Virus record (IMG/VR): IMGVR_UViG_3300025103_000071
Coordinates: 1-35,593 of that record
Strand: one strand, 5' to 3'
Source of the DNA: a virus
Taxonomy: Duplodnaviria; Caudoviricetes
Length of the DNA: 35,593 nt
Shown: piece by piece, positions 82 through 35,300 of the stretch
How positions within the stretch are numbered: position 1 is the stretch's first letter
Layout of the letters: the number at the start of each line of letters is the position of its first letter
The notes under the pieces: generated by a model
Told to the model about the DNA's origin: nothing
Database searches by the model: none
The model's input: only the letters and a program-made list of their open reading frames with translations
Program-made: the position numbers and the translations under genes

Positions 82-3000
82 TTATTGTTGTTGGGCTGCT
101 TGAGCAGCAATTGTTCTATCTATCATTTTAGAATTATTTGCAATATATGAACTTACTTCATTCACAGACCATTTATAATACTTATCTGCTTCAGCTTGGT
201 AATGCTGTGCCTGCTGAGCAGTCATAGTTGTTTTTTGAGCTTGGTTACTTATATTGGCTTGAAATTTTTGTACTTCAGCTGTGTATTTTTGGAGGTCAGT
301 AGCTCTCTCAGCCTGCCATACATCAACATCAGCTTTCAAATTAGCAGTGAACTCTTGGACTTGTGTCGCTACTTGCATTTGATAATTTTGAAGATTGTTC
401 TGATATGCTTGGGCATTATTACTATTATCCGCAATCAATGCTTGCATTTTATTTTGTGCGTTTTGCAATGCGTTTGCTTGATCTTTTTGAAGATTAGACT
501 TTTTTACATCTATATCAACTTGAAGATTTTGAATATCTGCTTGCATATCATGATTAGCTTTTGCAACAGCCTCTTGAAACTCAATCTGATATCTTGCATT
601 TTCTTTGTTAAATTCATTTAATTCATTTTGAAGATCAGTCCCAAACTTTTGAATTTCTAGTGTATTCCTTTTTTGCCATTCATCACACTCAGACGAATTG
701 CCTTGTACAACCCTAGACACTTCTGCCGTATAAGAAGAAATCTCATTTTGATAATTTTGTATTTTACGAGCTTCATTAGCATCTGCTAACTGAGCTTCTT
801 GTATCTTCTCTTGAACAACAGCTTGATAAATAGCAGAGTCTTTTTGAAAAGTATTCAAAGCATTTTGCATATCACTTTGATATTGCTGTAATACTGTTTG
901 TCTATCTTCATTCCATACTTGTAAATCGCCTTTAAGATTTGCATCATACTCTTGCACTTCTTTTTGAACTTCAGATTGATAACTTTGAAGTTCACTTTGG
1001 TATTTATTAATCTTACTTGTATTATCTGCTATAATAGCTTGCATATCGTTAGCTTTATTCTGCAATGAAAGAGCTTGATCTTTTTGCAAGTTTGATTTCT
1101 TAATATCATTTTCTGAATCAGCATTCTTCATTCTTTCTTGTGATTCAACTCTTAAATTCTCAACAGCTACTTGAAGATCATGATTAGCTTTATTAAGAGC
1201 TTCTTGAAATTCCATTTGATAACGTGCATTAGTGTTATTAAAAACATTCAATTCGCTTTGAATATCTGAACTATACGTTTTTAATAAATTATCATAATCA
1301 GTTTTATATTTTTCAAAGTTTTGAATCCACTCTTCATTAGTCCACTTCTGAACAACTGCATTTGTCTCAGATTGATACGCACTTAATTCATTTTGATACT
1401 TAGTAAGCTTAGATTGATATAATTGAACGCCTTCTTGAAAATTTTGTAATGCATTATCTGAAGCAATCTTTTGGTCTTTATCTAAATTAGCTTTTCTAGT
1501 AGTATATATATGTTGTGCTTGTTGTGTTGCTTCTTGAATGTCCTTTTGAAGATTGGCATTTTCCCTTTGAAAATCCTGCTGATACTCAACATTATTTTTA
1601 TTAAATACATTCAATTCATTTTGTATATCACTTCCGTATTTTTGTAAATCTGTTTGTCTACTTGTTTGCCAAGCTCTAGTATCTCCTTCTAAATTTTGCT
1701 GATACTCTTGAACTTTTGTACTAACTTCGGCTTGGTACGCAGACAATTCATTAGAATATTTTTGAAGTTTTTGGGCATCGTCAGATGATGATAGTTGTGC
1801 ATTTTGAATTGCTTTTTGTACTGATGCTTGGTACTCTGCATTATCTCTATTAAAAGAACTAACTGCATTTTGCATATTAGCACTAAACTCACCAATTTTA
1901 GAGTCCATCTCTCTTAATTTAACACTAGCAAGCTCTACATCTTCCTCAGTATCAACATAAGTATCAACTTGAGCATAATCAGTATTTGGAGAAGGAGGCT
2001 GAACATATGTAGGTACAGTACCAAATGCTCCAATAGAACTATCTGATAAAGATGGTGGAACAGGTACTGCAATTGTAATTGATAAATCACTTATTATAGG
2101 AGCAGACTCTAATACTATTGTTGGCTTTGTGTAACTAGGAGCACTCACACTAAGGACAGACATATCAGATATATTTACAATAGGTTCAACAATATCAGAT
2201 ATACCAGTGACATCCTCATAAGTAAAACTAGGAGACTCAGGTGCTACAGGAACGCTTGGAAGATTCAAACTACCAATAGTACCTAAAGATGGTACTGAAA
2301 ATACTGGTTTAGTATAGCTTGGAGCATGAGCACTAACATCAACAATAGAAGGAGCAGATGCAGATGTAGTTACTACGCTAGATGCACTTATATCTCCTAC
2401 TGAGGCATCGCTATGACTAACAACTGTTAATGATGGTGCCACAGGAGGCGTAATAGAAATTGTTAAATTTCCTATTGTTGGTTTAGTCCCTAAAGTTGGA
2501 GATGATGGGGGTACATAATTAGGGTTAGACCCCGAAAAATCTGCTACAACTTGAGCCGAGACACTAGGCTTGATGGGAGGGCTTGGGAAAACCCAAGAAG
2601 TAGCAGGAAAACTTGTTAATGACATAACTGGCTTTGTATATGTTGGTGCGTTTGAACTAACATCTATTATTGAAGGGGCAGTTACAGTCCCTTTAAGTAT
2701 ATCCGAAACAAAAGCATCGGAATAAGTAATTTTTTCAAGTATTGGAGAAATAGGAGCTATAATGCCTATATCCAAATCTGTTATTGTTGGGGCTGAACCC
2801 AAAGTAGGAGAGACAGGAACATCAACGTCTACCCAGTCTGTAATCTTTCCACTAGCTAATTTTGTAAACTCAAGAGAAGACACTCTATAAATAATTGCAT
2901 TCCTTAAATCAGAATCATCATCTATTTTAGAATAGTCTATGTAAAATATATATCCAGCATTGGAACCATCAGTAACGGGAGCAAAATGCACAGCCCCTTG

Positions 3001-3312
3001 TTTATGATAAAATTTAGGATATTTAGATGTTGCAAATTTTAAACTCGTTGAATCAAGTACCCAATTTGCCTCTGACATTGGAATTTCTTTACAACTATAT
3101 CCGTTTCTTTGTACATCAGTAATAGAATCATTTATTGAAAATGAAATTGCACTACCATCAGTTGAAGATGATGAAACTTTTTGTGCGAATAATAATAAAT
3201 CTTTAGGTATACTAGAAACTGCAAATTTCTGAGCATCTTCTATGCTATTAGCACTTAAAGAAGATATGCCAGTAATGTCTTTTACGCTTTGAGTGATTTC
3301 AGTTAAAGCCAT
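82..3312 (-). CDS. 1076-aa virion protein, probable head-tail connector/neck-type protein carrying a large Pro-rich plus coiled-coil insertion
   Basis: Directly downstream of the capsid gene; GGAGG RBS; five Pro-rich repeats ending P.Y.KP/P.YV.P followed by five Gln-rich helical repeats; non-repetitive N- and C-terminal ends. The connector role is inferred from position only. Confidence 0.6.
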   Translation of the reverse strand: MALTEITQSVKDITGISSLSANSIEDAQKFAVSSIPKDLLLFAQKVSSSSTDGSAISFSINDSITDVQRNGYSCKEIPMSEANWVLDSTSLKFATSKYPKFYHKQGAVHFAPVTDGSNAGYIFYIDYSKIDDDSDLRNAIIYRVSSLEFTKLASGKITDWVDVDVPVSPTLGSAPTITDLDIGIIAPISPILEKITYSDAFVSDILKGTVTAPSIIDVSSNAPTYTKPVMSLTSFPATSWVFPSPPIKPSVSAQVVADFSGSNPNYVPPSSPTLGTKPTIGNLTISITPPVAPSLTVVSHSDASVGDISASSVVTTSASAPSIVDVSAHAPSYTKPVFSVPSLGTIGSLNLPSVPVAPESPSFTYEDVTGISDIVEPIVNISDMSVLSVSAPSYTKPTIVLESAPIISDLSITIAVPVPPSLSDSSIGAFGTVPTYVQPPSPNTDYAQVDTYVDTEEDVELASVKLREMDSKIGEFSANMQNAVSSFNRDNAEYQASVQKAIQNAQLSSSDDAQKLQKYSNELSAYQAEVSTKVQEYQQNLEGDTRAWQTSRQTDLQKYGSDIQNELNVFNKNNVEYQQDFQRENANLQKDIQEATQQAQHIYTTRKANLDKDQKIASDNALQNFQEGVQLYQSKLTKYQNELSAYQSETNAVVQKWTNEEWIQNFEKYKTDYDNLLKTYSSDIQSELNVFNNTNARYQMEFQEALNKANHDLQVAVENLRVESQERMKNADSENDIKKSNLQKDQALSLQNKANDMQAIIADNTSKINKYQSELQSYQSEVQKEVQEYDANLKGDLQVWNEDRQTVLQQYQSDMQNALNTFQKDSAIYQAVVQEKIQEAQLADANEARKIQNYQNEISSYTAEVSRVVQGNSSECDEWQKRNTLEIQKFGTDLQNELNEFNKENARYQIEFQEAVAKANHDMQADIQNLQVDIDVKKSNLQKDQANALQNAQNKMQALIADNSNNAQAYQNNLQNYQMQVATQVQEFTANLKADVDVWQAERATDLQKYTAEVQKFQANISNQAQKTTMTAQQAQHYQAEADKYYKWSVNEVSSYIANNSKMIDRTIAAQAAQQQ

Positions 3313-3325
3313 TTTCCCTCCGCTA

Positions 3326-3356
3326 TTGGGGGAAAGTGCAAAACTTTAACCCCCAA
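3326..3356 (-). terminator. Hairpin after the major capsid gene (weak terminator or mRNA-stabilising stem)
   Basis: TTGGGGG(3326-3332)/CCCCCAA(3350-3356) with inner AAAGT/ACTTT; no U-tract on the minus strand; abuts the next RBS. Confidence 0.5.
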
Positions 3357-3371
3357 GAACATTAAGTTATC

Positions 3372-4961
3372 TTACGCTACTTTCCAGACTGCGTGAGATT
3401 CGGGCATTTGCCATTCCATACCAGCTTCGGTAAGGATCATGTCAACCCGTTTATCTGTACCAGTGTTTTCCAAGGATTGAACACCAACATAGATCGAAGT
3501 GTCTCTAGAAACACCATTACCTGCGAGAGGACGGTATTTACAATGCTTCATATTGACACCAAGCATAGCAACTTGAGTTTGATCAAGAGCAATGTGACGA
3601 GCCACGTTCATGTCACCATAAACTGTAGAAATTCTCGTCATGTCAACTCCAAATTGCTTGCTTCTTCCAGTAGCTGCAAAGCCAGCACGACCATATGATT
3701 GACCGTCAGCTGCAGGTGAAGATGCACCGGGTTCTACCATGCCAATATTATTAGCAAAGTAACCTGACAATTTATGCAACCAGTTGTATACTGCTGTAGA
3801 GCAGAAGAACACAGTTGCTTTGGAGTCATTGTATCTAGGATCAACATAGTTGCTCAAATCATCAAGAAATGAATCTTGAGATTTACTAGCTACGTCAAGT
3901 TCAAATACATTACCATTGTTCAAGATGTAATCAACTGCACCTTGAGTCTGTGCTACAGAGTTAGCAGTATACTGCGAACCGAACAACAAGGACTGTTCAA
4001 TGTCCCATTTGTGCTCGATGAGTTTTTCACGCCAAATCCTTGCCCATTCATTTGGTTCATACTTAAGAACCGTTGCTCGGGCAGTATTTGTCATACCAAA
4101 CTCAGTACGCCATATCTGCGTTTGTCCATAACCAGTAGCGAAAGGCTGATCATTCCAAGTAGTTCCAAGGAGTGAAGAACCTTCTGCATAAGAAGTTCCA
4201 ACAACGTATGAACGCTGTGCTTCTAATGAACCAGCAATCTCTTGATCGTAAGTACGACCAACAGGAACATTACTTGCAAATGAACTATATTCACCTGAAG
4301 CTGCTCTAATTACTGAACCAGTAACAAGCTGAACACTGCGAGCAGATGAACTAACATTTTGCATAGCAAAAGTTTTATTCCCTGCTGCTGCGACGGCTGT
4401 CACTCTCAATAGAATGTAATCATCTGGTTTAGCACCATTTGCTCCACCACCAGCTGTGGAAGAAACAGGAATCTTTATGATTTGATTATCCATAAAGAAC
4501 TCAGGGGCTGTTCCAGAATCACCAACATCAATCTTGTCAGTTGCTTGTCCGAACTTGTTTTGGATGTTGCCACCACTTTTGTAATCACACGCCATATATA
4601 CTTTAAGTATATCGTCTAGAGCAATTGTTGCATCTGCTCCATATCCAGTGATTGTTGCATCGTCAAATACATCAGTAGTACTAGCCTTAATTTGACCAAC
4701 TACATATGCATAACGTCTATGAAAAGATGGTCTTCGTTCCGTAAACTTGAAACTTGGATCATCGGTAGGATTTTTAGCCACTTTTGATACAAATCTAAAA
4801 AAAGGTGATTGTGCAATCGCCAATTCTGATACCCTACTGCCAAAGTTATACTTTCTGCGAAGGACACCAGTATTTAGATCAGTACCTAATCGAGAGCCAG
4901 CTGCACCCAGAGCTTGATCGTTGATATCCCAATTGCTCAGGAATCTAGGGGTTGAGGCCAT
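3372..4961 (-). CDS. Major capsid protein (HK97 fold, SU10/DUF5309-like), 529 aa
   Basis: Position after portal and scaffold; motifs 'GQTQIWRTEFGMTNTARAT', 'EHKWDIEQSLLFG', 'DMILTEAGME' resemble this MCP family. Confidence 0.85.
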   Translation of the reverse strand: MASTPRFLSNWDINDQALGAAGSRLGTDLNTGVLRRKYNFGSRVSELAIAQSPFFRFVSKVAKNPTDDPSFKFTERRPSFHRRYAYVVGQIKASTTDVFDDATITGYGADATIALDDILKVYMACDYKSGGNIQNKFGQATDKIDVGDSGTAPEFFMDNQIIKIPVSSTAGGGANGAKPDDYILLRVTAVAAAGNKTFAMQNVSSSARSVQLVTGSVIRAASGEYSSFASNVPVGRTYDQEIAGSLEAQRSYVVGTSYAEGSSLLGTTWNDQPFATGYGQTQIWRTEFGMTNTARATVLKYEPNEWARIWREKLIEHKWDIEQSLLFGSQYTANSVAQTQGAVDYILNNGNVFELDVASKSQDSFLDDLSNYVDPRYNDSKATVFFCSTAVYNWLHKLSGYFANNIGMVEPGASSPAADGQSYGRAGFAATGRSKQFGVDMTRISTVYGDMNVARHIALDQTQVAMLGVNMKHCKYRPLAGNGVSRDTSIYVGVQSLENTGTDKRVDMILTEAGMEWQMPESHAVWKVA

Positions 4962-10602: not shown

Positions 10603-10700
10603 ATAAATCCGTGCCTTTCAGGATACTTCATAACTTTAGGGTATTGTTTAGATATACCATTTTTGTCAGGTATCCTGTGTTCTATTTTTGTTTTTTTCAT
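10563..10700 (-). CDS. 45-aa hypothetical protein (MKKTKIEHRIPDKNG...)
   Basis: Hand-translated; ATGA overlap with the phosphoesterase stop. Confidence 0.45.
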   Translation of the reverse strand: MKKTKIEHRIPDKNGISKQYPKVMKYPERHGFIWESSETPLPSTI

Positions 10701-12846: not shown

Positions 12847-13052
12847 TTCTTTACTCCCTTCTTTAATCGTTTATCTTTTACTAATTGGCATTGAACACAC
12901 AAGCCATTAGGGTAAATAAAAAACTTTTCTACAGACTTCCCACAGTTATAACAACCACTGTAAGACGATGTACTGTCTGGATTATCTTTATTGTCTTTTG
13001 TATTATTCAATTTGCCCATCCTCCCAGCCCTTGAAGGTAAGCACAAAGTCAA
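12834..13052 (-). CDS. Small Zn-finger-like protein
   Basis: CYNC...CVQC; start uncertain. Confidence 0.5.
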   Translation of the reverse strand: MTLCLPSRAGRMGKLNNTKDNKDNPDSTSSYSGCYNCGKSVEKFFIYPNGLCVQCQLVKDKRLKKGVKKWHI

Positions 13053-13212
13053 GTAATATCCAAATACTAAATGACCATGTTATTTGTAAGAAAAATTGAA
13101 GTAAAATGATGTGGGTATATACTTAACTCTGAAAGGGAAAAATCGGTTTATTGGAATCGCTTTTTACGTTAGTCGGTTTTTCGATTCCTTCACTTACAAT
13201 AACGGAGTTCAT

Positions 13213-13516: not shown

Positions 13517-13553
13517 GCAACAGCCCCCCTTCGGGGGGCTTGTTGTTGTTATT
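13517..13553 (+). terminator. Intrinsic terminator
   Basis: AGCCCCCC-TTC-GGGGGGCT hairpin (can form a C-UUCG-G loop) followed by TGTTGTTGTTATT. Confidence 0.8.
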
Positions 13554-13670
13554 CGTTATAAGGCTTCGTATAAGTGCAACGTTGGGACGTATAGATACAT
13601 ACTATCACATACACACACATATATCGTACATATTCAACTAACGTGGTCAGTAACATGAAAGATTTAGATT

Positions 13671-13745
13671 TAGCAAGAGATACGGGTTAAAGCCCATCGT
13701 AATTTAGGTTTCCCTGCAGGTTTCCGTTCCCTGTGTCTCTTACTA
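13671..13745 (+). ncRNA. Putative structured RNA element E1
   Basis: TAGCAAGAGATACGGG pairs with CCTGTGTCTCTTACTA: 16 positions, 1 mismatch, 2 G-U. Confidence 0.6.
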
Positions 13746-13754
13746 TAGTACCAA

Positions 13755-13872
13755 GGATGAAGTTAATATGTCATAAGGTATGGTGGTGCATACTTCCCAG
13801 ACATATTACCACGACGGGTGGCTTCCGTTCAGATAATGAAGAGATAAGCGTAAGGGGCTCTTCACTTCATCC
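13755..13872 (+). ncRNA. Putative structured RNA element E2 (multibranch)
   Basis: Closing GGATGAAGT/ACTTCATCC; inner TAATATGTC/GACATATTA, AGGTATG/CATACTT, ACGG/CCGT, TGAAGAG/CTCTTCA. Confidence 0.7.
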
Positions 13873-13895
13873 ATAATTTAAATGGAGAGTATAAC

Positions 13896-14021
13896 ATGAA
13901 TGCATTCAAGCATTACATAGTAGAAGTTATTATAACAATAATCAAGTTAATCAAGGGATATGGTTTAGAATCATTTGACTGTATCACTTACAAACAGTAC
14001 ATGGAGAATAAAGATGATTAA
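13896..14021 (+). CDS. 41-aa hypothetical protein (MNAFKHYIVEVII...)
   Basis: Hand-translated; GGAGAG RBS; stop overlaps next start region. Confidence 0.55.
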   Translation: MNAFKHYIVEVIITIIKLIKGYGLESFDCITYKQYMENKDD

Positions 14022-14160
14022 AAAAATCAAGCAGTTATTTAAAAGAGCAACACCAATAACAAAGGACAATAGACCTGACCGTTGGGTTGCTAAATATCCA
14101 GGTAATTCACATCAACGTAGAATAGCAAGACGTAAAGCAGAAAGGAGTGCAAACTCATGA
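14014..14160 (+). CDS. 48-aa basic peptide
   Basis: Track ORF 13975-14160; ATG at 14014 has GGAG RBS; 'NSHQRRIARRKAER' Arg-rich motif. Confidence 0.6.
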   Translation: MIKKIKQLFKRATPITKDNRPDRWVAKYPGNSHQRRIARRKAERSANS

Positions 14161-14393
14161 TAATATATTTAATCAATTGCACATTACATTACAATCATCA
14201 TGTAGATATAAGCTTCACAGGGTATGGGAAAGATGATGGTAAGTATGTATATGTACCAGTCACCAAGATCAGTTTAAGGGAAAAACAAGGCGGTGAAATA
14301 TATATACCTGAACAAGTTAAAGATAGTGAAGGTAATAAAATATTTAGAATCGCAATCAATCAACTTGAAAACATAACCTACATGGGTGACTAA
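14157..14393 (+). CDS. Hypothetical protein
   Basis: ATGA coupling and AGGAG RBS. Confidence 0.65.
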   Translation: MIIYLINCTLHYNHHVDISFTGYGKDDGKYVYVPVTKISLREKQGGEIYIPEQVKDSEGNKIFRIAINQLENITYMGD

Positions 14394-14394
14394 T

Positions 14395-14559
14395 ATGTCA
14401 TTTAAATGTTATAAATGTGATAAGCCTATTAAACCTAAATGGTCTGATAGGCTATTTACATATACTCATAAGTTATTATGTTATAAATGTTGGCAAGCAT
14501 CAAAGAATAAAACTAACAAAGCATTATATGATGCTAATCAAAGAATAAGAAATAATTAA
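14395..14559 (+). CDS. 54-aa Zn-finger-like protein
   Basis: Hand-translated MSFKCYKCDK...LLCYKCWQ; two CxxC. Confidence 0.6.
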   Translation: MSFKCYKCDKPIKPKWSDRLFTYTHKLLCYKCWQASKNKTNKALYDANQRIRNN

Positions 14560-14583
14560 TCGAGGACTCCGCATCCTCCAACA

Positions 14584-14643
14584 GGGGGGCAAGTCAGTAA
14601 CAGAGTGTTTAAACTAAAAGAAAGCTCTCGAGACTTGTCTCCC
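14584..14643 (+). ncRNA. Putative structured RNA element E3
   Basis: GGGGGGCAAGTC/GACTTGTCTCCC, 12 bp with 2 G-U; inner AGAG/CTCT; small GAGGA/TCCTC hairpin just upstream. Confidence 0.6.
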
Positions 14644-14666
14644 ATTACTTAACAAGGAGTATAACC

Positions 14667-14789
14667 ATGCCTAATCGTAAAGCAAAAGATCGTAAAAGAT
14701 TCAAACGTAAATTAAATGATAGTTTGAATAAATATGGTAGAACCAGAAAACAAATACAAAGCAGACTAAAGAAAGTGAAAACATCATGA
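14667..14789 (+). CDS. 40-aa very basic peptide (MPNRKAKDRKRFKRKLNDSLNKYGRTRKQ...)
   Basis: Hand-translated; AAGGAG RBS at canonical spacing. Confidence 0.7.
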   Translation: MPNRKAKDRKRFKRKLNDSLNKYGRTRKQIQSRLKKVKTS

Positions 14790-14896
14790 TAGTGCTCGGA
14801 TATATATTAGGTATAATCATGTGGCTTTGTATAGGTCATTATGTCGTTAATATAAGACATCAAAGAAGAATTAGACTGAGTTCCAAAGGTAAGTGA
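14786..14896 (+). CDS. 36-aa single-pass membrane peptide
   Basis: Hand-translated MIVLGYILGIIMWLCIGHYVVNIRHQRR...; ATGA coupling; 3' end overlaps E4. Confidence 0.5.
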   Translation: MIVLGYILGIIMWLCIGHYVVNIRHQRRIRLSSKGK

Positions 14897-15014
14897 GAAA
14901 TCTTTTGGTTCATAGAAGGGGAAACACTCATTACTCACGTTTGACCATTTAATCATAGTACTTGAAACTGACAGCTGGATTAATGGATGGTAATGAGTCT
15001 TCTAACTCAGTCTA
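14872..15014 (+). ncRNA. Putative structured RNA element E4
   Basis: Perfect 11-bp closing stem TAGACTGAGTT/AACTCAGTCTA; inner TAGAAG/CTTCTA, ACTCATTAC/GTAATGAGT, CCATTTAATC/GATTAATGG, CCAAAGG/CTTTTGG. Confidence 0.75.
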
Positions 15015-15018
15015 TAAT

Positions 15019-15117
15019 TAGCCTGTCCATATCTCCTGCGACTAACAATTATGTGGATTCATTGAAATTATTCAACACATATATGGCGTATACAGTTAAG
15101 ATTAAATGGGCAGGCTA
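15019..15117 (+). ncRNA. Putative structured RNA element E5
   Basis: TAGCCTGTCCAT/ATGGGCAGGCTA, 12 bp with 1 U-G; inner TATGTG/CACATA, TTGAA/TTCAA. Confidence 0.7.
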
Positions 15118-15120
15118 TAA

Positions 15121-15203
15121 TTGAGAGGTATGGAAGCAGTTGAAGTCTGCTATAAACGTGAGTATAAACACATTCCTACTAATACATCTAGCGAACCTCT
15201 CAA
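15121..15203 (+). ncRNA. Putative structured RNA element E6
   Basis: TTGAGAGGT/ACCTCTCAA; inner AGCAG-TTGAAGT-CTGCT. Confidence 0.65.
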
Positions 15204-15273
15204 AAAATTAATAAATAATCATCATTAACAAGCTTCGGTCAGCCGTATTGGTAAACACAGATTGGCACACATT

Positions 15274-15366
15274 CTTTTTAAGATTGCTAGGTAAGCCCAA
15301 ATTGATATATAAACCCAATTTATTAGGGTTGATGGTTATTTATTACAAGTCACCAATCTTGAAAAG
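15274..15366 (+). ncRNA. Putative structured RNA element E7 (may be part of a larger ~15235-15430 fold)
   Basis: CTTTTTAAGATTG/CAATCTTGAAAAG, 13 bp with 1 U-G; inner AACCC/GGGTT; adjacent CCACTT/AAGTGG hairpin. Confidence 0.55.
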
Positions 15367-15434
15367 GTCAACTTGGTTCCCACTTATCCAAAATGGTAAA
15401 AAAGTGGAAAAATTTATGTACTACACCGTATAAA

Positions 15435-15550
15435 ACTCTACTTTAAAGTCTATGTCCTGTGTATCTAACCGGAGTCTTGATATAAAGTACGGAGCACCTG
15501 ACGAGGTTGGAGTAGTTTGAATGATGCGAAAGATTTGCCTACGAGCATCA
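15435..15550 (+). ncRNA. Putative structured RNA element E8 (imperfect)
   Basis: ACTCTA/TGGAGT, TATC/GATA, ACCT-GACG-AGGT, TGATGC/GCATCA; pairings shorter and ambiguous. Confidence 0.35.
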
Positions 15551-15561
15551 GCATATAATAT

Positions 15562-15630
15562 TGGGAAGAGTTTGTTCTAATTTCCTGTAAAGGATTAAAA
15601 ATCAACCTTGAATAGGTTGTTCTCTTCCCA
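15562..15630 (+). ncRNA. Putative structured RNA element E9 (three-way junction)
   Basis: TGGGAAGAG/CTCTTCCCA enclosing TCC-TGTAAA-GGA and CAACC-TTGAATA-GGTTG hairpins. Confidence 0.7.
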
Positions 15631-15659
15631 TTTAACCATAATAAACAGGGAATACAATA

Positions 15660-15902
15660 ATGAGAAAACTAGCAGTAGATGAAATAATAGGTGGTCTTGT
15701 AGAAGCTTATGAAAAGTTACTTATATTATCCACAGACCCAGAAGGAAGTTGCCCAGCAGAATATCATCAAGCATTAGGTGAAGTCACAGCATTAAGATGG
15801 GTATTGGGTCAGCCAAAATGTTCAATAGATAGTACAATGCAAGAAGATGAACAACTTGTATTTGAAGAAGAACATGAATATGCTCCAAAGGAGGATGAAT
15901 AA
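15660..15902 (+). CDS. Hypothetical protein
   Basis: Track ORF; 'GEVTALRWVLG' helical hairpin; coupled to next ORF. Confidence 0.7.
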   Translation: MRKLAVDEIIGGLVEAYEKLLILSTDPEGSCPAEYHQALGEVTALRWVLGQPKCSIDSTMQEDEQLVFEEEHEYAPKEDE

Positions 15903-16141
15903 TGGGTATATATTGGACTTGTTGTTCTTGTTGTCAACAGGTTGAAGATCATCAATATGAAGGTGATGAAAGAATGTGTTTTGATTGTCTTGATGCTGGA
16001 GATTATTATGAACCAACAGAACATGATAAAATATCAAGCGGTAATAATGAAAAACCACAACTAATACTCATGGCATGGAGGAAATATTGCATGGAATCAC
16101 CAATTTTTAGAATGTTTGTTAAACTAGGATGGAGGAAATAA
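15902..16141 (+). CDS. Small Cys-rich (Zn-finger-like) protein
   Basis: CSCC...CFDC; GGAGG RBS; TAATG coupling. Confidence 0.6.
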   Translation: MGIYWTCCSCCQQVEDHQYEGDERMCFDCLDAGDYYEPTEHDKISSGNNEKPQLILMAWRKYCMESPIFRMFVKLGWRK

Positions 16142-16368
16142 TGCCAAAAATAAGAAGTATAACACATAGATATGCTGATAGCACTGTTTTAAGAACACAA
16201 ACTTGCAGATATGTATTATCTCTTGCAACAAAATGTGTTGAATTGCTTGAACATGGTTGTAGTACAACTGAATTACAAAAAATAAAAAGTGAAATCAGTT
16301 ATATAAAAAGAATGTTAAAACAAGAGTTTATCAGATCACCATCAACAAGATCAGATAACTTTCAGTAA
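16141..16368 (+). CDS. Hypothetical protein
   Basis: Track ORF 16129-16368; ATG at 16141 has GGAGG RBS and TAATG coupling. Confidence 0.6.
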   Translation: MPKIRSITHRYADSTVLRTQTCRYVLSLATKCVELLEHGCSTTELQKIKSEISYIKRMLKQEFIRSPSTRSDNFQ

Positions 16369-16377
16369 ACTTAATAT

Positions 16378-16495
16378 AGTCAACAGGGGTTCCGGAGCAT
16401 AATTCCAGAGCAGTTCTGCATGAAAGCTGTAGCGTCAGTGTCCGTTGATACTGCAAGCCCTATAACGTAGCTGTTTTGGTTGTCCCCTGTTGACT
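16378..16495 (+). ncRNA. Putative structured RNA element E10 (multibranch)
   Basis: Perfect 12-bp AGTCAACAGGGG/CCCCTGTTGACT; inner CCAGAGCAGTT/AGCTGTTTTGG (3 G-U), CTGCA/TGTAG, CAGTGTC/GATACTG. Confidence 0.75.
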
Positions 16496-16530
16496 TTAAC
16501 CCTTAATATTATTAAATTTAGGAGCATCAC

Positions 16531-17274
16531 ATGAAAAGAATACAACAAACTGACATAATTGAAAAACTATATAATTCATACTTAGAAGATCAAAAATATG
16601 TAAAGAAAGAAGGACATTTCTCGGCATCATCAGCAGGCAAATGTTATCGTGAACAATATTATATTATAAATAATTATGAGCAAGGTGATTTCGATGATAG
16701 AGTCAGAAGATTACTAAGACTTGGTACAATTGTCCATAAAGATTTTGAAACAGCTATAAATGATAAGAAAGATCAACTTGAAACAACAACTGATCTATTA
16801 ACAGAATATGAAGTTATAATACCTGAATTAAAGGTTGTGGGACACTTAGATATTGCTCTTGTTAATCATAAAGAGAAAAGAGTAGATATATATGACTTAA
16901 AGACCACTGGTGGATATAAATGGAGGTTATTATTTGGCAGAAAGCCTGATCCTAACCCAAGCTTCATGTATGAGCTACAAATAGGGACATATGCCCTTGG
17001 TTTGATGAATAAATATGATAATTATGATTATACATTAAGTCTTATATATTATAATAAAGATACAAGTGCTATGAAAGTTGTAAAGAAAGATGCTACTCAT
17101 TGGATTGATAAAGCATTAGAATACTGGACAGATTTAAATGAAACACTAGATGATATTGATAATGATAAAGATTTGATTCCTGGGGGAAGCATGGGTGTAC
17201 CTATGTATGATTGGCAGTGTAAATACTGTGGATTTAAAGAAGAATGCCCAGGAATATTCACACCAGCAAGATAA
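16531..17274 (+). CDS. PD-(D/E)XK exonuclease, Cas4/AddB-like
   Basis: 'SASSAGKC', 'GTIVH', 'GHLD', 'DLKT', 'QIGTY', C-terminal 'CKYC.....C' (four Cys, Fe-S pattern). Confidence 0.88.
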   Translation: MKRIQQTDIIEKLYNSYLEDQKYVKKEGHFSASSAGKCYREQYYIINNYEQGDFDDRVRRLLRLGTIVHKDFETAINDKKDQLETTTDLLTEYEVIIPELKVVGHLDIALVNHKEKRVDIYDLKTTGGYKWRLLFGRKPDPNPSFMYELQIGTYALGLMNKYDNYDYTLSLIYYNKDTSAMKVVKKDATHWIDKALEYWTDLNETLDDIDNDKDLIPGGSMGVPMYDWQCKYCGFKEECPGIFTPAR

Positions 17275-21303: not shown

Positions 21304-22069
21304 TACATTATTTCCAGTAATGGAAATACCTGCTACTTATGCTTTTAATGAAGAAGCTGGTATAGGAGATGTGAAATTAAACACAGGTTATAAGTTCATA
21401 GTAAGAGAGGACACCAATGAAGTATTAAGTTGTATGACAGATGAATACAAGTTGGTTTCAAATAAACAAGTTATTGATGAAATAGCAAAGCCATTAAAAA
21501 GTAGTGGAGCACATTTCAAAGAAGCTCAAATGTTTGGTGATGGAGCAAGAACACAATGGACTTGGTTATTTCCAGAAACAAAAGTTGATATTGGAGATGG
21601 TGATAATGTTAATCCAGAGATTACTGTCAAGAATAGTTACGATGGGAAATGGGAATTGTCATTTATGGCAGGTGCATTCAGATTAGTGTGCAGTAATGGA
21701 TTAGTAATTGGGACTATTCTTGATAGCAAAAGAAACAGACACTCAATATACAATACTAACCTTGACAAATTGTCCGAGCTGATAATGGATACTGTTAATA
21801 AGACCACTGATCTGTTTAATGAAGACTTTCCAATGTTACAATCCGTAAAAGTACATGATAAGTCTGTTCCAAATGTTGTTAAGCAATTGCCTCAGCAAGC
21901 AGTTGAACCTTTTGTTCGCTATTGTATGGGTCATAAGATTGAAAACTATTGGGATTTACTAAATGCTTTTACTTGGGTAACAAGTCATGCATTAAATCGT
22001 CAACATGAAAGTACTCATAGACTTGAAAGCAGAGTTTATCCTTTAATTAAGAATATGGCTACTGCATAA
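21266..22069 (+). CDS. DUF932/DUF945-family protein
   Basis: 'NSYDG...FRLVCSNGLV' signature; 'YKLVSN'. Confidence 0.85.
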   Translation: MGKSQRNSVSVIDTLFPVMEIPATYAFNEEAGIGDVKLNTGYKFIVREDTNEVLSCMTDEYKLVSNKQVIDEIAKPLKSSGAHFKEAQMFGDGARTQWTWLFPETKVDIGDGDNVNPEITVKNSYDGKWELSFMAGAFRLVCSNGLVIGTILDSKRNRHSIYNTNLDKLSELIMDTVNKTTDLFNEDFPMLQSVKVHDKSVPNVVKQLPQQAVEPFVRYCMGHKIENYWDLLNAFTWVTSHALNRQHESTHRLESRVYPLIKNMATA

Positions 22070-22070
22070 T

Positions 22071-22898
22071 ATGGATTCAGTCAACTGGAAAGATTGTCCA
22101 GTTATATTGCCTTATTGGGGAGGTAAAGTTCAACTTTCTAGACAGTTAGTTGGAATGATACCTCCCCACAATAGATATATAGAAGTATTTGCAGGTGGAC
22201 TTTCAATGTTTTTCAGAAAAAAGAAATGCAAACATAATGTTATTAATGATAAAGACAATGATATAGTAAACTTATATGAATCAGTTAGAACAGATTTTGA
22301 AGAATTCTCACATCACTTTAAATATTTAATCAAAAGTCGTGAATTGTTTAATAGATTTAAGGCAGTAGTAAAAAGTGATAAAAATATTAACATACCTAAT
22401 CCTAAAAGAGCAGCTGAATACTATTATATAATTAAATGTGCATTCAATAATAATTTTCATAACCCAATAAGTAAAGACCAAGAATGGAATAGTAAATTTT
22501 TAAAAGACATAGATTACTCAAAACAATACTTTGATAATGTAATGATAGAGAATTTTGACTTCAGGGAATTATTAAAGAGATACCCACCAAAACCAGATGA
22601 CTTCTGGTATCTTGACCCACCTTATATAGCAGCAACAGAACGTAAAGATTATTATTTCTTTACTTTTAATCAACAAGATCATAAGGATATGTTAGGAATA
22701 CTAAGGGCTATTGATGAAAAAGGTGGTAAATTTATGGTTTCCTATGACGATAGAAATGAAATAGAATCTCTATTAAAAGAGTTTGAAATATCAAAAGTAC
22801 AGACAAAATATGGCGGTAGACATTTTGATCCAAGTAAAGTATACAATGAATTAGTAATTACAAATTATAAACCACAAAAACAAGAAACCCTATTTTAA
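22071..22898 (+). CDS. Dam-like (D12 class) N6-adenine DNA methyltransferase
   Basis: 'YWGGK', 'EVFAGG', 'IND', 'YLDPPY'. Confidence 0.92.
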   Translation: MDSVNWKDCPVILPYWGGKVQLSRQLVGMIPPHNRYIEVFAGGLSMFFRKKKCKHNVINDKDNDIVNLYESVRTDFEEFSHHFKYLIKSRELFNRFKAVVKSDKNINIPNPKRAAEYYYIIKCAFNNNFHNPISKDQEWNSKFLKDIDYSKQYFDNVMIENFDFRELLKRYPPKPDDFWYLDPPYIAATERKDYYFFTFNQQDHKDMLGILRAIDEKGGKFMVSYDDRNEIESLLKEFEISKVQTKYGGRHFDPSKVYNELVITNYKPQKQETLF

Positions 22899-28500: not shown

Positions 28501-29354
28501 TCATCAAATTTTTGATATTTATCACTATTGAAAATCTTTCTTCCAATATTAGAAAAGAAATTTGTTTTACCAGCATACCCTAATTTAGATTCAGGTATTG
28601 TCTTTTCTATATTTCTACCATCATCATCTTTTTGATTATCATAAGAAACACGATATTTCGTAGTCCCTTTAGTAGTTTTTATCCTTTTAAGTATAGTAAC
28701 ATTTTCTCCATCAGAATCAAATAAACCAGATATTCCATCAATGGGATTATCCAAATCTACCTGCCCACTACCAACAAGCTCCGTAAAATTTCCTTCAAAT
28801 CCCTCCTTTTGAATTTTCATTCTTTCAATATAGCTTTGGTAAGACTGAACAGTTTTATCAGTTATAGCCTGCGCTGCATCAATTAGTTTTGAAACAGTAC
28901 CAAACCTATCAGCTTTCATCATCAAAAGACCTGGAGGCATCAATGCTCTTTCCCAATTCTTCATTCTCTGGTCAGGTCTAGCCATTATTTCATCAGATTT
29001 CTTTCTAATCTTTTCAAATCTCTTATTCATACCATGTAAAGTTCTACTTGGTAATGTATCATTGCCCCTATAAATAGGATTTAGATTAAGTCTGCTAAAA
29101 TATGTAGCCCATTTACCAACCATATCCCAAGGGTCAGCTTCATAAGCAGTAGCACCACCCCACTTAAGAAAGTAATTTTTCATATTATCGTACAGAATTT
29201 TATGCATTTTATAATTACTAGCCTTCTTATTAGGTACACCTATCATATTAGATAATGCATCATTTATATTAAGTTCATAAGCTATTTGTAAAGCATTAAA
29301 ACTTTCTTCCATTTTATTCTTTACTGATACACAAGCTTTAAGTGATTTTGCCAT
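25512..29354 (-). CDS. 1280-aa probable internal virion/ejection protein
   Basis: Large, mostly helical; 'MQYKSY' and hydrophobic segments near the C-terminus; TAATG-coupled to the RNAP gene. Function inferred from context. Confidence 0.6.
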   Translation of the reverse strand: MAKSLKACVSVKNKMEESFNALQIAYELNINDALSNMIGVPNKKASNYKMHKILYDNMKNYFLKWGGATAYEADPWDMVGKWATYFSRLNLNPIYRGNDTLPSRTLHGMNKRFEKIRKKSDEIMARPDQRMKNWERALMPPGLLMMKADRFGTVSKLIDAAQAITDKTVQSYQSYIERMKIQKEGFEGNFTELVGSGQVDLDNPIDGISGLFDSDGENVTILKRIKTTKGTTKYRVSYDNQKDDDGRNIEKTIPESKLGYAGKTNFFSNIGRKIFNSDKYQKFDDVLYESLVMEKYRDEFTNDIVHGQTRYFIPTTTENTSQRDNRIITYALERRKARTDFLNKKDPDAPPEFQNENIDMQGKYETPDLSVAEFKSADPEIQLSPDGLVEYLMVKQETPRNGAETYKVYALRSKKDATSEWENVAHQADNIDIHILKEGFYKAQKEHSYSYLQGKGEVKYGRETKQYYIKEKIKNSKNDIKFQPHKAYGAFQYLENQPSDAVLTKTIAGTGGITLWDLVAEYREQYRDLYEDVRKFGKANDKTSVRLRKTISNEMKRKINPETKKQYTAGEIADWIDDNILKLGGIESAVYEGKYGLSTSDSYFQKIGVNYGPVMFTRQALENMMDDAVENINKKLAGDLHPWARKRLEPARDGINKILEMLVSRGIGEQSRDIRDAASTVHTEHRSLWTSNLNRRKDGNVHAEYLEKTFRNLHRNSLVNQMVSTMYTLSKTESMMPTDITDYMVNRVKLALGHIDTINKVPTLRGWQDVSQEEVAAWMNTWFPKSLRAGREFDEASAEKLMLIINGLFSGRFLGMGGAMGNRTQILNPIIHYGLDIWKKAGNALNGGTETSQAKWKSVVDATGVLNLISMFNEIMLGSGEHLDGHDFGLYPFSDRVSKWIGGAAIPIPSQNMRNWFSLIRRGKDNFLKNGESSIDHLLLNMLFREKSKLKKAEISYLRELTETLKRLDTHQKWSAEFNADNLSDELKTELLDKRDAYWGLLTIEEANNKRDLVEKRMRRLVGEISDHKFKKMVTWKLSWWFTEGNKDLFTFTEGEQQMRSETALMAIFHAQSLGLLGKVTTGDYNDSMYKSPIAKKVARDAVYQMMFGMSPVWLGEAFSGMGRTVMQYKSYTLFQMIHDRNIAANFMDSSYDTKDAFVRIFTALGENSTDIEAKAFVRLLMSRGVASTFGVMSSIAPIMWKIIGRSSGATKIIRSAENPVFALAARMVVWAVMLGMGFSEEDEEKARDDWGNRLMFMFLPVLFGSLFRDAYDSITNFTD

Positions 29355-32300
29355 TATTTACACTTTATGTTATTAAGCATTTGATTATTTACATTGTTAA
29401 TTTCATGTATATCCATTCCTTTTTTCCTTCTTGTTTGTTGAAGAGTCTGAGGATCAATTTTTATTTCACCTTTCTTAACATCTCTAACTTTCTCATCCCA
29501 TTTTTTAAAATATTTTCTTATTGTTGTTTTGTCTAATAATTTCATTGGTGGTATATGTAATCTGTATGCTGGTTTTCTACCTTTAACAACTACTCCCTGC
29601 AAGTAGTATAGAGTAGCAACTACTTGTTCTTCTTTTGTTAGCTTATTCCACTCCTCTATATGAAGATCAGTTAATAAAGCCATAGGCTCATTATAATCAT
29701 ATCTTAATTCTATAGCATCATAACCACCCTTAGCCAGTCCTTTTTCTTTCTCTATTTTATCTAATAAATCAAAATAATCACTAGCAAAGTTATCCATATA
29801 AGTAGTAGCATTATTTAAAGCTTTTCTATTTGCTGGACTTCTTAAATAGTCCTGCATTTCCAATGCAATATTATCAGTTGCTCTAGCATGTGCTATACGA
29901 TTTGCTGTATCTGTAAACATCATAGGCAAATCTCCATCTACCCATAACTCACCATCTTCTTTGCCCTTTCTCATATGAAGAGAAATAAGTATTTCTTCCT
30001 GTGGTGTAAGATTTTCATTTAATTTTATATACCATTTACCCTTTAGAGGTTTCTGTTTTCTTTCACTTAACTGCTTAGCTACCTTAAGACCAATCTTATG
30101 CCCAACAGTACTAATTCCCTCACCATGACTTAGCATCCTTGCCATTTCAGCCGATTTGCTAAATAACCCATATATATCATACTGTTTTTGATTTGTATTG
30201 TTTATTCCCTGCCTTACTGGGCTAAAATTCATCAAACGAAGTACTGATCTGAGAGCATTCATAGGATTTTGGATAGTATCATTAAATGCACTTTTTATAT
30301 TTTTCCTTGGGTTGCCCATCATTGATGCAACGCTATTGCCATTATTATTTTTAAATAATCTAGAGTACACAAAGTCTGGATTAATTTTTAACTGCCCAAG
30401 AAATCCAAATTTAGAATCATCTACAGCCATTTGTAGAAGAATACTTAATTCGTGTTCTTTTGTAGTACCCAAATGAAAATTAATTTTATTATCCACTATA
30501 TAGTCTTGACGAAATTTTTGATAATCATCAGCTGTATATTCTTTATTTGATTCACCATTAATAATAGAATCACCTTGTTCATATAAACCATTCCAAGCAT
30601 CTTCTGTCATAATTAAAGTATCGCCTTCCATAACTTTTATATTGACATAATCTAAAACAACCTTGTCTGTTGGTTTAAAAACTCTATATGCCATTGTTCC
30701 AAGATCAAGTTTAAACTTCTTTATACCCAGAGAGAACATAGTATTTCGTGCATTAGTAATCATTCCAATAGTTTTCTGAGCACTTGAAATTTGATTAATA
30801 ACATAGTTGACATGAGTTGAATTAGACATGTCTGTAGCACCCGTTGTATTATCAAGAATTTTTAAATTAACTGCTTTTCTTTTACGTTTCCACAGATCAC
30901 CATCTCTAAAAGTTTTAAAGGCATCAATAACTTCATTATCTGTGATAATTTCAACCATTGTTTTGTCACCATCCCAATCACCATCAAATACATTTATTAT
31001 ATCTTCTGCATTGGCAAACAGAGTCTCACCATGATCGCTTTTAACAAAACTGTGTAGTCTTCTAACAACAACACCAGTAAGTTTAGCAACAGGTTGTCTA
31101 GATAATAACAACTCAACTTTATGATGCTTCAAGTATTGGTTTAAAGCAGTTACTTTACTATCGTAACTATAATCCCAACTCTGTATAGGTTTCTTCTTCT
31201 TTTCTTTTCTTTTTTTATTAATTCCTAATATATATTTGTCTAACCAAGCTTTATCACGAATAACTAAAGCAGTCACATGATTGACGAGAGTAGAATTTTT
31301 TTGACTAATTGAAACACTTTGTTTTGGTATCTCAAGGTGTACTTTAGGTTTAAAGAATAATTGAGTTGCCTTACCCTTCTTTTTCTGACGCATTTTAAAT
31401 AATCCATGCGTAAAAATCCTTTTTTTAATCATCTCTTTCCAAAAACTAGTAGCTGCTGGATGATGAACTCCCTTACCATCTTCACCTATTGTATCTATAA
31501 TACTTTGAAATTGTGTCTGGACTTGACCATCTTGAAGTTCTTGTTTCAATTCATCTCGTAATGACTTAGGATTATTAAGAAAGCCCTGAAAAGCTTTTAA
31601 ATAGTCATTGGTTATTGAACCATAATGTTTTCTAAGGGCTTTTATAAAGGCTTTCCCACCATGCTTCTCATCATTCAATATTTCAGTATCCATAGCTAAC
31701 TCACCCCAAGTAACAGGAAAAGCAGCAGTAGTCTTAGAATGTTCTTGTGCTTGTATTATTTTTTGTGATGTCTCTGGTATTGATTGTACTGTATAAAACT
31801 CAGAGAATCTACCTGATGTCATTTTTGAAGTATGCACAGATGAAAGGTGATCAATAACCTTACCTGTTTTAACATCTATTATACTATTATTAATTCCACT
31901 ACCAGATACCCTAGCAAAAGCTTCCGTTTCTCCTTTCCTTCTAAATTCCATACCATTAAAAGCAGTCATTTGCATCATTTTAGTACCAATATAATTATCA
32001 GCAGCATAGGGATCATCAGCTTTCTCTAGGACTCTTATAACTCCCTTAACTTCATTAAGGTCTTTAATACCAGTTTTTTCTATTAGCCTCTTAAACCAAG
32101 TACCAGATGAAATCATCCAACCATCTTGATTAATTGTAATATCTACTTTTTTACCACCTACCCAAACTTCAACGTCATCATCAATAGTCATGATTGTGGA
32201 GTCTCCCATACCCCTTGGGACATATCCCTCTGTCATGTCAATTCTAAGCCTATTGTAGTAGTCCTGAATACCTAAAGGAGTAACCTCCTGCTCAGAATTC

Positions 32301-35300
32301 TGGACATCAAGGTGAGTTCCCATTAAATACTTATTACCTTTGGTATCTTTCCACCACTCATGCTTACCTATAATCTGTCTAAAATCTTCTTTTATAGATA
32401 TTGACTCACCATTTTTAGAGGTCATTCTAACGCCAACATTAGAACCACCAGTCTTTGATGCATTCATAAATTGAGCTTTATGATTTTCAGTTATATTACC
32501 ATATTCAATTTCTTTATCAAGGTATTCTATGAATTGTTTTTCTGTATAAGATGTATATTCAGGATTTACCTTAGCAAACACAAGCATCCCCTGACTTCCT
32601 GACTTAACACCAACAAAAGTAATTAAATTATTCTCGCCAGAGTTAGGATTATCAAAATCAAAAACAAATTCACCTTGCCAACTAGCAATTTGTTCAGCAT
32701 TTGCTGTCATATCTGATTTGGCAAAGTATTTTTCTTTTGTACCAAAAGTTGTTTTTTGCATAACAACATCTTCCATACTCAGTATAATAGTTCTTTCACC
32801 AAATCCTTGATCTTCCCTAAAATTAGACACAGCACTCAATGGGACTCTGTTACCACTAGCTAATTCAAATCTTTGAGTAACGACACCATTTTCATCTTTT
32901 GTCACACTTGTCATGCCTTTATATGAGAGCATAACAGCACCTTCTTGAGAAACCTGAACAGCCTCATAATGCATTCTACCACCTTGTCTTAATACTGGAT
33001 CGAATACTTCAATTTTTGAATTACTTTTATTGAAGAATTGACGAACATAGTCAGCAGGAGTATCTCTGCCATAGTTTTTTTTGAAGAATTTATCAAACTC
33101 TTTTTCAAAATTATCAAAATTGTTAACATTCTTTTTGGCTAATTCTATCATTTCCTGATAATCATCATTCATAAAATGAATACCAAGCTTACTCTCCCAA
33201 TGTGAAATCATAAATATATCACTTGGATTCCATCCATTGTCTCTATCTACAGCTTGATTCTCATACCCAGTATTAGCTAACAAAGACCTGTTGCCACCTC
33301 TTAGACTAAGTATTATCTCTCCTTCTTGGTAAAAGCGACCAGCTATTAGTTCGCCTAATTCATCTTCTTGAATCATATCAAACAAATTCTTTACTTCTAA
33401 CCAGAATTTTCTAAGCCACATTTCTACACGCTTTCTAGTAGAGCCAGTTAGTCTATTGGCATAATAGTCTCCTATATACTGAACAAGTTCCTCTTTTGAT
33501 TTAAATTTTTTAATACCTGCTTTTACTACTTTATTGTTAATAAGCATATTAACATAAGGGTGAGCATATTCATGTGGGGCTGTATCAAATGTAGCATCAG
33601 ACTTTCCCCACATAACAGCAGCACCTATCGCAGCCCCAGCTACCCTGTCACCATCAATAATTAACTTCTCAACTTCGGTTACATCTATACTAGGATACTT
33701 CTTCTTTAGTCTCTTCTTAATTTTCTCCCAAATTTTTGGAGATGTAGTTGCTTTTGGTTGTGTAGATGCTTCTTTCTGTTGTAATTCAATATTGCCAATG
33801 CTATCTGATCTTGATGCACCACTATCCTTTTTTTCGGAAACAAAAGCATCATGGAAAGCTTCTAATTCAACAGACCCTAGCTTGCCTTCTCTCTCAGCAG
33901 CCTCTATTCTTTTTAGTAGAGGAGCAACTTGTTCTTGACTTATTATACCATCCTCTACCCCAGACTCTAAAGCAAGTGTTGTTTCACCTCCCCTATTAAG
34001 AAACATTTTATGAGCATTAAGAGCAGCTTCTATAAAACGAAACTGTTCTGGAGTCATAGGAGTTTTTTGTTTAGCTTTTAATTTTTGAGTTTCAGCTTTC
34101 TTTTGTTGTAACGATTGTTCAAACCTAGCTTTAAAACCAGCCTCGTCTCTGATGTCCCCCCTAGTACCTTTTGATGTTCTATATACAAAATTCTTAGGAG
34201 CCACCACTTCTGTTTCTATCCCAAGTCGAAAAGCAGCCTTAGCGGCAGCCTCATCAAATCCAGTTTGACCACCAGTAATAACTTTACCAGTAACCTCTCG
34301 ACCACTTTCCTTTACTTTGCTAACAACCGCAGATAGCCAATGTCCTACATTTGTATCTAAATTTGACTGTCTTTGTTCTTTTTCTTTTACTGTTCCTTGG
34401 TAATTACCATGACCAGCAATATTTAAAGTGCCTCCATCAGCAAGAACATTAGCAGCATCTTGAATTTGTCTATCACTCAAAGTAATAGAAAATCTACCTT
34501 GTTCATCAACAGGTACTCTAGAGTATTTTTTAGCATACTTCCTCGTAGCACCAGAGCCTTTTTCTGTTTTAGAAAAATCAATAGTTAAATCAGCTTCTTG
34601 ACCAGTTTCTCTTGTTCTAGCAGGGTATCCGGGTTTCTTAAGTTCTCTAAATTTAATTTTGCTAGGGGTAGTAACATCAGGACTTGACACGGGTGCAGTC
34701 GTAAGAGGTTCGCCTGTTTCGTTATCAATATCTTCTGATCCAAATAAATCTTGTTGTTCACCACCTTTTTGTGCGAAATCTGCTACATTTTGAACGGGAT
34801 CACCAACACCTTCTGGAGTCTCATCTGAAATTGGAACATCTGCTAAGTCTTTAGGAATAGGTTTTCCAGTAACTTTTTCATCAGTTATTATTTCAGTAGA
34901 AGTAATAGCATCAGTTTTAAAAGCAAGATACTCTTTTTCTATTTCTTTAACTTCACCTTTACTAGTACGATATTGTTCTAAAATAAGACCATCATATCCT
35001 TTACGATAAAGAAGATTTGTAAATTTTTCTCTTCCAAAATTTGATATTATATCATATATAGGTGGAGCATAAAATTCTGAAGGTCTACCATCTGTAAATT
35101 TTTGTTCTATCATTTCAACAGGAACACCAAGCTCTTTTAAGAACTCAATTTGTTTATCAAATTTTTGTTTTAATTCTTCGGGTTCATCTAAGCGTTTATC
35201 AAACTGTTTCAAATAACTCCCCTCACCCATCAAAACAAGTGGATTTTTTAAAGTTATTTTTGATTTATAAACAAATCCTTTTACTCTTTTTCCAAAATTA

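Follow-up and report, generated by a model that had tools for sequence, protein, structure and literature searches.

An early-region array of stem-closed units, predicted to fold as RNA, in an uncultured marine tailed phage

The window analyzed here is the whole 35.6-kb contig (35,593 nucleotides, IMG/VR record IMGVR_UViG_3300025103_000071) of an uncultured marine tailed phage that occurs in marine metagenomes. According to protein searches, it encodes a P22-like portal, an SU10-type capsid protein, a terminase, DnaB, Dam, and a Cas4-like nuclease. At the start of its plus-strand early block, amid small open reading frames (ORFs) without known family, lies an array of about ten different stem-closed units, E1 to E10 (positions 13671-16495), in which RNA base pairing appears to be selected and whose members behave as cassettes exchanged between phages.

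Folding and selection on base pairing

The array was pointed out in a preliminary description made from the sequence letters alone, and this observation is partly confirmed. A stem scan blind to the proposed boundaries (at least 8 bp, at most -12 kcal/mol, span 48-190) picks out 9 long-range stems from the region's 1,535 non-coding bases, whereas 300 dinucleotide shuffles give a mean of 0.72 and a maximum of 3. With a stricter cut-off of -14 kcal/mol, 7 stems are found in these 1,535 bases versus 7 in the remaining 32,063. Isolated long-range stems outside the array lie at 10619-10677, 21624-21726, and 22116-22168, the last two within ORFs. Closing stems of 9-12 bp stand where they had first been placed for E1 to E6, E9, and E10, whereas E7 and E8 were mis-drawn. 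Using the original boundaries on the plus strand, fold z-scores are -2.7 (E1), -3.2 (E2), -4.0 (E3), -2.5 (E4), -4.1 (E5), -2.0 (E6), -1.6 (E7), -0.1 (E8), -4.4 (E9), and -4.4 (E10). Folding is thus better than in shuffles for eight of the ten units, marginal for E7, and no better for E8 with either its first or its corrected boundaries.

As first drawn (15274-15366), E7 is not a conserved unit because its 5' arm sits in a 75-85-nt insertion absent from other contigs, which skip 15246-15322 or 15249-15335 and this arm with it. In the locus L192, the unit devoid of the insert reaches a z-score of -3.9. The conserved stretch of E7 extends to about 15409 and terminates in separate hairpins, not in a single closing stem. 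E8 begins near 15416 instead of 15435, and its covarying closing stem counts just 4-6 bp. A coding explanation was rejected because the ORFs running over E2, E5, and E6 have no ribosome sites and their homologues carry indels of 1, 4, and 34 nt.

Relatives were collected with an alignment of 41 nuclease homologues, which retrieved 160 related loci where a single nuclease query had retrieved none. Pairing statistics cover 733 non-redundant non-coding segments amounting to 219 kb. On the plus strand, single non-Watson-Crick pairs within stems are G-T (G-U in RNA) in 56 cases and A-C in 6, versus 5 and 6 in shuffles, and GNRA loops occur in 9 of 82 loops versus 2.5 +/- 1.3 of 52 expected. Matches to the CCGCA-loop hairpin that precedes E3 number 16 on the plus strand and 4 on the minus strand over the same 219 kb. 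The proposal that selection acts on plus-strand RNA is upheld by the pair counts in the relatives and not by the window, where folding alone leaves the strand unsettled, the minus strand folding equally well for E1, E2, E4, E6, and E9. The same data bear on DNA-level hairpins or cruciforms serving as recombination or replication signals. Many stems are indeed perfect inverted repeats that fold on both strands, and nuclease and annealing-type genes adjoin, but the G-U excess on one strand, the GNRA loops, and the multibranch interiors leave this explanation scarcely credible.

Covariation was counted as raw changes, uncorrected for phylogeny or relatedness. In E9 (9 sequences), two-sided changes affect 9 of the 11 closing pairs, the junction bases are invariant, and 95.5% of the alignment cells are paired; 0 of 500 shuffles come up to this, and slid controls are paired at 51-61%. 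E8 shows two-sided changes at 7 of 19 pairs (7 sequences), and E3, E6, E10, and E4a, the shell module of E4, display two-sided changes or stems replaced entirely (2-4 sequences). The 3' 23 nt of E6 are invariant in five sequences from two phage lineages. Only one-sided changes are seen in E5 and in the E7 core, whereas E2 varies by indels and two loop changes. E1, restricted to near-identical strains, has therefore no covariation support. At the level of sequence, these patterns show conserved plus-strand pairing under selection, with invariant single-stranded cores held in freely covarying clamps.

Exchange of units between loci and phages

The units are not bound to one genomic context. E9 lies before the nuclease block in the window and after an ssb-like gene in five of seven other loci. 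Over eight loci it precedes four different protein clusters at distances of 20-496 nt (the window ORF at 15660, read by hand, is a homologue of cluster 108). E4 to E9 follow one another directly, not separated by any credible gene, and one contig skips 13660-13873, that is, both E1 and E2. Modules also occur inside one another. Thus, E4a and E4b, nested in the window, stand apart in L089, and E4a holds another insert in L081; L085 has the E5 shell with nothing in it, and L052 has the inner module of E5 within an E8-family unit; the inner module of E3 is nested in the shell of another family in L054; and E2 has an extra 34-nt hairpin in L194. In L175, a strain 99.4% identical to the window over 2,564 nt, an additional complete unit stands between E8 and E9 and is bounded by 9-nt direct repeats.

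Single units are shared with phages that are otherwise distant, the terminases of the contigs G001, G006, and G011 being 29-32% identical to that of the window and these contigs carrying replication genes unlike those of the window (Sak4, primase-helicase, Gam, RusA). G001 and G002 share only E6 with the window (88 nt at 98.9% and 94 nt at 97.9%), and the G001 copy belongs to another array, about 950 nt long. G006 shares only the E7 core (95-98%; terminase 31% identical). The 2.4-kb locus of G011 shares only E2 (97-100%; terminase 29% identical), and the E2 copy in the phage with this terminase is surrounded by foreign sequence and has a 34-nt hairpin nested in it. Other metagenome contigs show loose ends of similarity at the borders of E2, E5, E6, and E7. 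Among six matches to the E2 pattern, those in L196 and L198 were discarded as chance hits in GC-rich contigs, and two more are near-identical strains. The alignments thus show what the letters alone could not, namely that units are nested, move between slots, are gained or lost as wholes, and pass almost unchanged from one phage to a distant one. The cassette-like array of the preliminary description is supported.

Exact-boundary transfer, nesting, gain, and loss are also what selfish or neutral cassettes would display, spreading by themselves in an RNA-templated or transposon-like manner with no benefit to the phage. Miniature inverted-repeat transposable elements (MITEs) have conserved terminal inverted repeats, a variable interior, and many copies. 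The units are the opposite, with covarying ends, fixed cores, and mostly a single copy per locus (one E9 each), the exception being one family present three times in L156. Neither the 45 proteins of the window nor the 47 family representatives include a reverse transcriptase, transposase, or integrase, and the units are confined to the early strand, which makes selfish spread very unlikely. Integron attC sites end in RYYYAAC...GTTRRRY, occur once per gene cassette, and are accompanied by an integrase, whereas here the unit ends differ, units follow each other in tandem without genes, and no integrase match was obtained in the window.

The same context data weigh on cis-acting transcript elements, which would stabilize or tune the early mRNA and its neighbours as exonuclease barriers, processing sites, or signals for antitermination. 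All units are intergenic and on the early coding strand, several of them ending 20-30 nt short of a start codon, a terminator-like hairpin stands ahead of the array, and E10 overlaps a promoter-like motif. However, six consecutive units have no intervening gene, and downstream genes and distances vary. One generic barrier would be enough, but the families with invariant cores number some 20 and are unrelated, and stems with a median of 12 bp are short for RNase III. A cis role is thus considered unlikely, though it would fit the placement of several units.

Wider pool of units and setting of the array

In the relatives, 372 distinct candidate units group into 27 clusters with at least three members each, and the author reads about 18 of these clusters as real families; the catalogue contains false members such as tRNA, coding, and GOLLD-like pieces. 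Unit stems have a median of 12 bp and a span of 78 nt, and their flanks are about 80-95% A/U. The outermost G-C pair is oriented 5'G/3'C in 163 of 190 units versus 92 of 190 in shuffles, a bias that is equal on both strands and hence uninformative for the strand. The commonest family (L042 10829-10888 and about 20 loci) is a hairpin whose shell is constant and bears two opposed bulges; the inserts that it holds differ greatly and include other families' cores, and its three copies in L156 lie at 297-979. Long arrays of stem-closed units are also observed in other lineages (L177 about 2470-3410, L190/L192 1000-1590, L194 1010-1430, L156 130-1080).

A palindromic-loop family (L052 11244, L055 11155, L056 9273, L064 8770, L066 5394, L089 520, L153 4924) carries a palindromic hexamer, in four sequences, in 6 of 7 P2 loops, the seventh being a wobble version, with a loop-shuffle chance of 0.05-0.14 for each loop; it is a candidate kissing-loop dimer. 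In another family, a 10-nt self-complementary stretch is kept in 4 of 4 members with three different central dinucleotides, and the palindromes of E3 and E4b are preserved through paired changes (two variants each). Merging E3 with the palindrome family of L046 was not supported by comparison, and both were kept separate. Covariation of this kind was the sign of intermolecular bridges in OLE and GOLLD (PMC12286853). The units might therefore be small counterparts of GOLLD and ROOL that pair, like with like or unit with unit, through palindromic loops and so form dimers or larger assemblies, and in relatives GOLLD is itself found in this region. But these families were chosen post hoc, and the excess over all 181 units is small (palindromes of at least 8 nt, 79 versus 61.7 +/- 7.7; of at least 6 nt, 206 versus 225, no excess). 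As, in addition, E2, E6, and E9 have no palindrome and no unit aligns to GOLLD, self-assembly is rather improbable.

GOLLD itself was detected in relatives at 156 bits in L003, in three more loci below threshold, and in ten nhmmer matches, some redundant. These short GOLLD RNAs of about 400 nt, several under the Rfam threshold, include L003 3673-4077, L006 6136-6571, L090 5868-6288, and L005 5313-5699, with further loci in L086, L160, L068, L065, L123, L046, and L110 and divergent GOLLD-like sequences in L019/L023/L098. A tRNA-Met gene is present in the region in 14 of 161 loci. A PNKP-type phosphatase (PF25109), possibly with an RNA-repair function, is encoded by 13 ORFs (L043 5008-5647 and 12 other loci) and lies near tRNA-Met in several loci; a peptide deformylase occurs in two loci (L045/L116).

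The size of the units, their multiway junctions, and their invariant junction bases are typical of ribozymes and aptamers. New self-cleaving ribozymes or metabolite aptamers, riboswitch-like and possibly acting as sponges of nucleotide alarm signals, were also considered. Against them, no Rfam ribozyme or riboswitch match was obtained in the window or in scans of 40 loci, which returned nothing but tRNA and GOLLD, and the units have no fixed downstream gene or gene class and no expression platform. E8 contains hammerhead-like words but neither stem II nor the NUH site that belong to the hammerhead core. Such catalytic or metabolite-binding functions are accordingly judged improbable.

The features of the region are listed in Table 1. 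The GC-skew switches near 13000, close to a strand-switch motif that is a candidate early promoter, origin, or genome-end signal. An AC/AT-rich run at 13590-13640, upstream of E1, resembles the AC-rich tract that follows this motif in relatives. One slot, immediately ahead of the promoter-like motif that belongs to the Cas4-like gene, is occupied by different unit families (L001 7882-7951, L045 7851-7950, L086 7874-7942, window 16378-16495).

Table 1. Units of the array and neighbouring features, with positions in the window
Feature	Position	Strand	Remark
Strand-switch motif	13072..13110	.	conserved across the phage family; nhmmer, 10 distinct sequences
Intrinsic-terminator-like hairpin	13522..13540	+	just upstream of the array; folding and motif scan
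E1, stem-closed unit	13671..13745	+	known from near-identical strains only
E2, multibranch unit	13755..13872	+	
Four small ORFs	13896..14559	+	no known family; between E2 and E3
Small hairpin with CCGCA loop motif	14562..14578	+	motif recurs beside or within units of relatives
E3	14584..14643	+	covarying closing stem; inner palindrome preserved via paired change
Two small ORFs (40 and 36 aa)	14667..14896	+	between E3 and E4; end of the second (36 codons, 14786-14896) overlapped by E4 5' arm
E4, composite unit	14872..15014	+	shell module E4a (14888-14932 core), nested module E4b (14945-14986)
E5, irregular hairpin shell	15019..15117	+	inner module 15053-15078
E6	15121..15203	+	23-nt invariant 3' core, variable stem and insert
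E7, corrected	15209..15409	+	16-bp helix 15209-15224/15330-15345, 75-nt insert, then two hairpins
E8, corrected	15416..15555	+	three-way-junction family; short covarying closing stem, variable insert
E9, three-way junction	15562..15630	+	covarying closing stem, invariant junction bases; two genomic slots
Three small ORFs	15660..16368	+	no known family; between E9 and E10
E10	16378..16495	+	closing stem of 12 bp; two-sided change seen once in 3 sequences
Promoter-like motif	16490..16518	+	conserved, before the Cas4-like nuclease gene; motif scan, nhmmer
Cas4-like PD-(D/E)XK nuclease	16531..17274	+	marker used for collecting related loci

None of 18 small proteins was matched by PADLOC. At the other end of the window (29354-35443, minus strand), a protein of 2,029 aa that contains an ART-PolyVal ADP-ribosyltransferase domain and matches cpYpsA is a polyvalent protein, likely injected. 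Among INPHARED phages, no close relative was found (terminase at most about 25% identity, DnaB about 29%), nor any match to the non-coding region of the window or to the array of L177. Two host labels, a GTDB contig in a Roseobacter metagenome-assembled genome (MAG) and a Pelagibacterales MAG, are both probably binned phage DNA and were not used, and the available part of PMC4611503 offered no host link.

Proposed action on host factors and comparison with known systems

In these units the clamp is replaceable whereas the core is not, and no given neighbour or phage is needed; an RNA whose core binds a host component is therefore the simplest reading. The units are accordingly proposed to be small RNAs freed from the early transcript at AU-rich linkers and binding host factors in trans as decoys, with a probability put at roughly 0.45. 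The preliminary interpretation, a polycistronic cassette of small structured RNAs with decoys among the suggested roles, is partly supported, the backing for transcription, processing, and the decoy role being circumstantial. The units would likely be transcribed together with the early genes, and host nucleases would likely cut them apart at the AU-rich linkers. Release by endonuclease cuts and exonuclease trimming down to the clamp, as in tRNA clusters, is considered fairly probable. Action in trans on a host ligand would then be somewhat favoured once release is granted, and some weight is added for units acting unprocessed. The freed stable RNAs may serve as decoys for translation, RNA-surveillance, or anti-phage proteins, and short-homology recombination at the linkers may be how the units spread. 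Anti-defence genes, too, are marked by early timing, patchy presence, and recent transfer.

Several described RNAs provide precedents for parts of this scheme. RNase P reportedly processes hairpin-like non-tRNA substrates and has been proposed to do so for the phage CI and C4 RNAs (PMC5499578), and the 5'G/3'C bias together with the AU-rich flanks is compatible with 5' maturation by RNase P. Phage RNAs countering host defence include pseudo-ToxI (PMC3475682), phage tRNAs (PMC11555353), and Racrs (PMC10651486).

Other points weigh against small RNAs acting on host factors. The analysis brought up no ligand, host, or target, and Rfam contains no known decoy or antitoxin that is similar to any unit. 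The units have neither a CCA end nor a conserved T-loop, so that RNase P action is a guess, and the 5'G/3'C bias could have another cause. As E7 and E8 have no long terminal clamp, the processing grammar is not universal. The overlap of E10, by its 3' arm, with a promoter-like -35 hexamer and the position of E2, E3, and E9, which end 24-30 nt before a start codon, fit a cis role too, and portability would be expected from any element that uses host machinery, in cis or in trans.

A broader picture, doubtful at present, is that marine phages share a pool of dozens of plug-in RNA aptamers, each neutralizing or hijacking one host factor; these would be stacked and nested into multivalent chimeras, some dimerizing through palindromic loops, and single modules would pass undamaged from one phage to an unrelated one that infects the same host. 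If true, the pool would be an RNA counterpart of anti-defence protein islands. Phage counter-defence and host takeover have been studied almost entirely via proteins, and a natural, portable, nestable, and strongly selected repertoire of small RNAs would add an RNA layer to the phage-host conflict. It would also provide short, testable handles on the role of orphan phage RNAs such as GOLLD in the same region, as well as numerous new RNA folds of natural origin, which accept inserts and could be used as scaffolds. As the units measure 60-140 nt, the predictions are testable with synthetic RNA.

Comparison with known systems places the units near several of them. Among the roles first suggested, tRNA mimicry is not supported, as ARAGORN and Rfam both give 0 tRNA or tmRNA matches for the window, unit stems are paired to the end with no encoded NCCA overhang, and the T-loop-like hairpin of E6 is located in a dispensable insert. 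By contrast, the statements that the units are neither repeats nor CRISPR and belong to no known RNA family are borne out, since no repeat family connects them and none has an Rfam match, which also sets them apart from Racrs and pseudo-ToxI. T4 RNA C and RNA D are located in a tRNA cluster; P1/P7 C4 and P4 CI are antisense RNAs. C4 and CI are, like the units, stem-closed phage RNAs of similar size with presumed RNase P excision (PMC5499578). No unit has an Rfam match to them, and complementary targets in the own genome amount to scattered 11-12-mers only, shorter split targets being indistinguishable from chance. RNA C and RNA D resemble the proposed RNAs in being small stable phage RNAs without known function, but they are two fixed late RNAs of one phage group (PMC9697503), whereas here about ten per genome, on the early strand, belong to a large exchangeable pool.

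GOLLD and ROOL, orphan structured phage RNAs near tRNA genes (PMC12286853, PMC12990946), come close by the presence of GOLLD in the same region of relatives and by the palindromic loop covariation of some unit families. However, GOLLD is one family of 400-800 nt, whereas the units are unrelated to each other, 60-200 nt long, and swapped and nested singly. In the window, GOLLD (RF02032) gave no match at the gathering threshold or at E<=10, and nhmmer with the GOLLD of L003 gave none either. Pseudo-ToxI (PMC3475682), Racrs (PMC10651486), and defence-evading tRNAs (PMC11555353) resemble the system proposed here as portable RNAs acting on a host factor, but they are copies of a known host RNA, in the form of repeats or tRNAs, whereas the units have no known host template.

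PeSL of T4-type phages are also non-coding cassettes in variable early regions subject to modular shuffling; they consist of repeated promoter-terminator motifs (PMC2839356), whereas the units are all different and devoid of promoter and U-tract, promoter-like sites in the window numbering 17 versus 18.8 expected. In phi14:2, early intergenic stretches yield abundant, lasting RNAs of unassigned function, although this phage belongs to a different group (bioRxiv 10.1101/2020.03.07.982082). Six unit motifs had 0 matches in the searched part of the data of Fremin et al. 2023 (PMC10690425; 8,495 IMG/VR candidates), and the alignments outside that part may contain single units as unannotated candidates. 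No description of arrays of unrelated, nested, and exchanged RNA units was found in the literature searched, to which subscription papers mostly do not belong. Judged by its alignments, the array thus appears to be a real, selected, and modular RNA system of no described kind.

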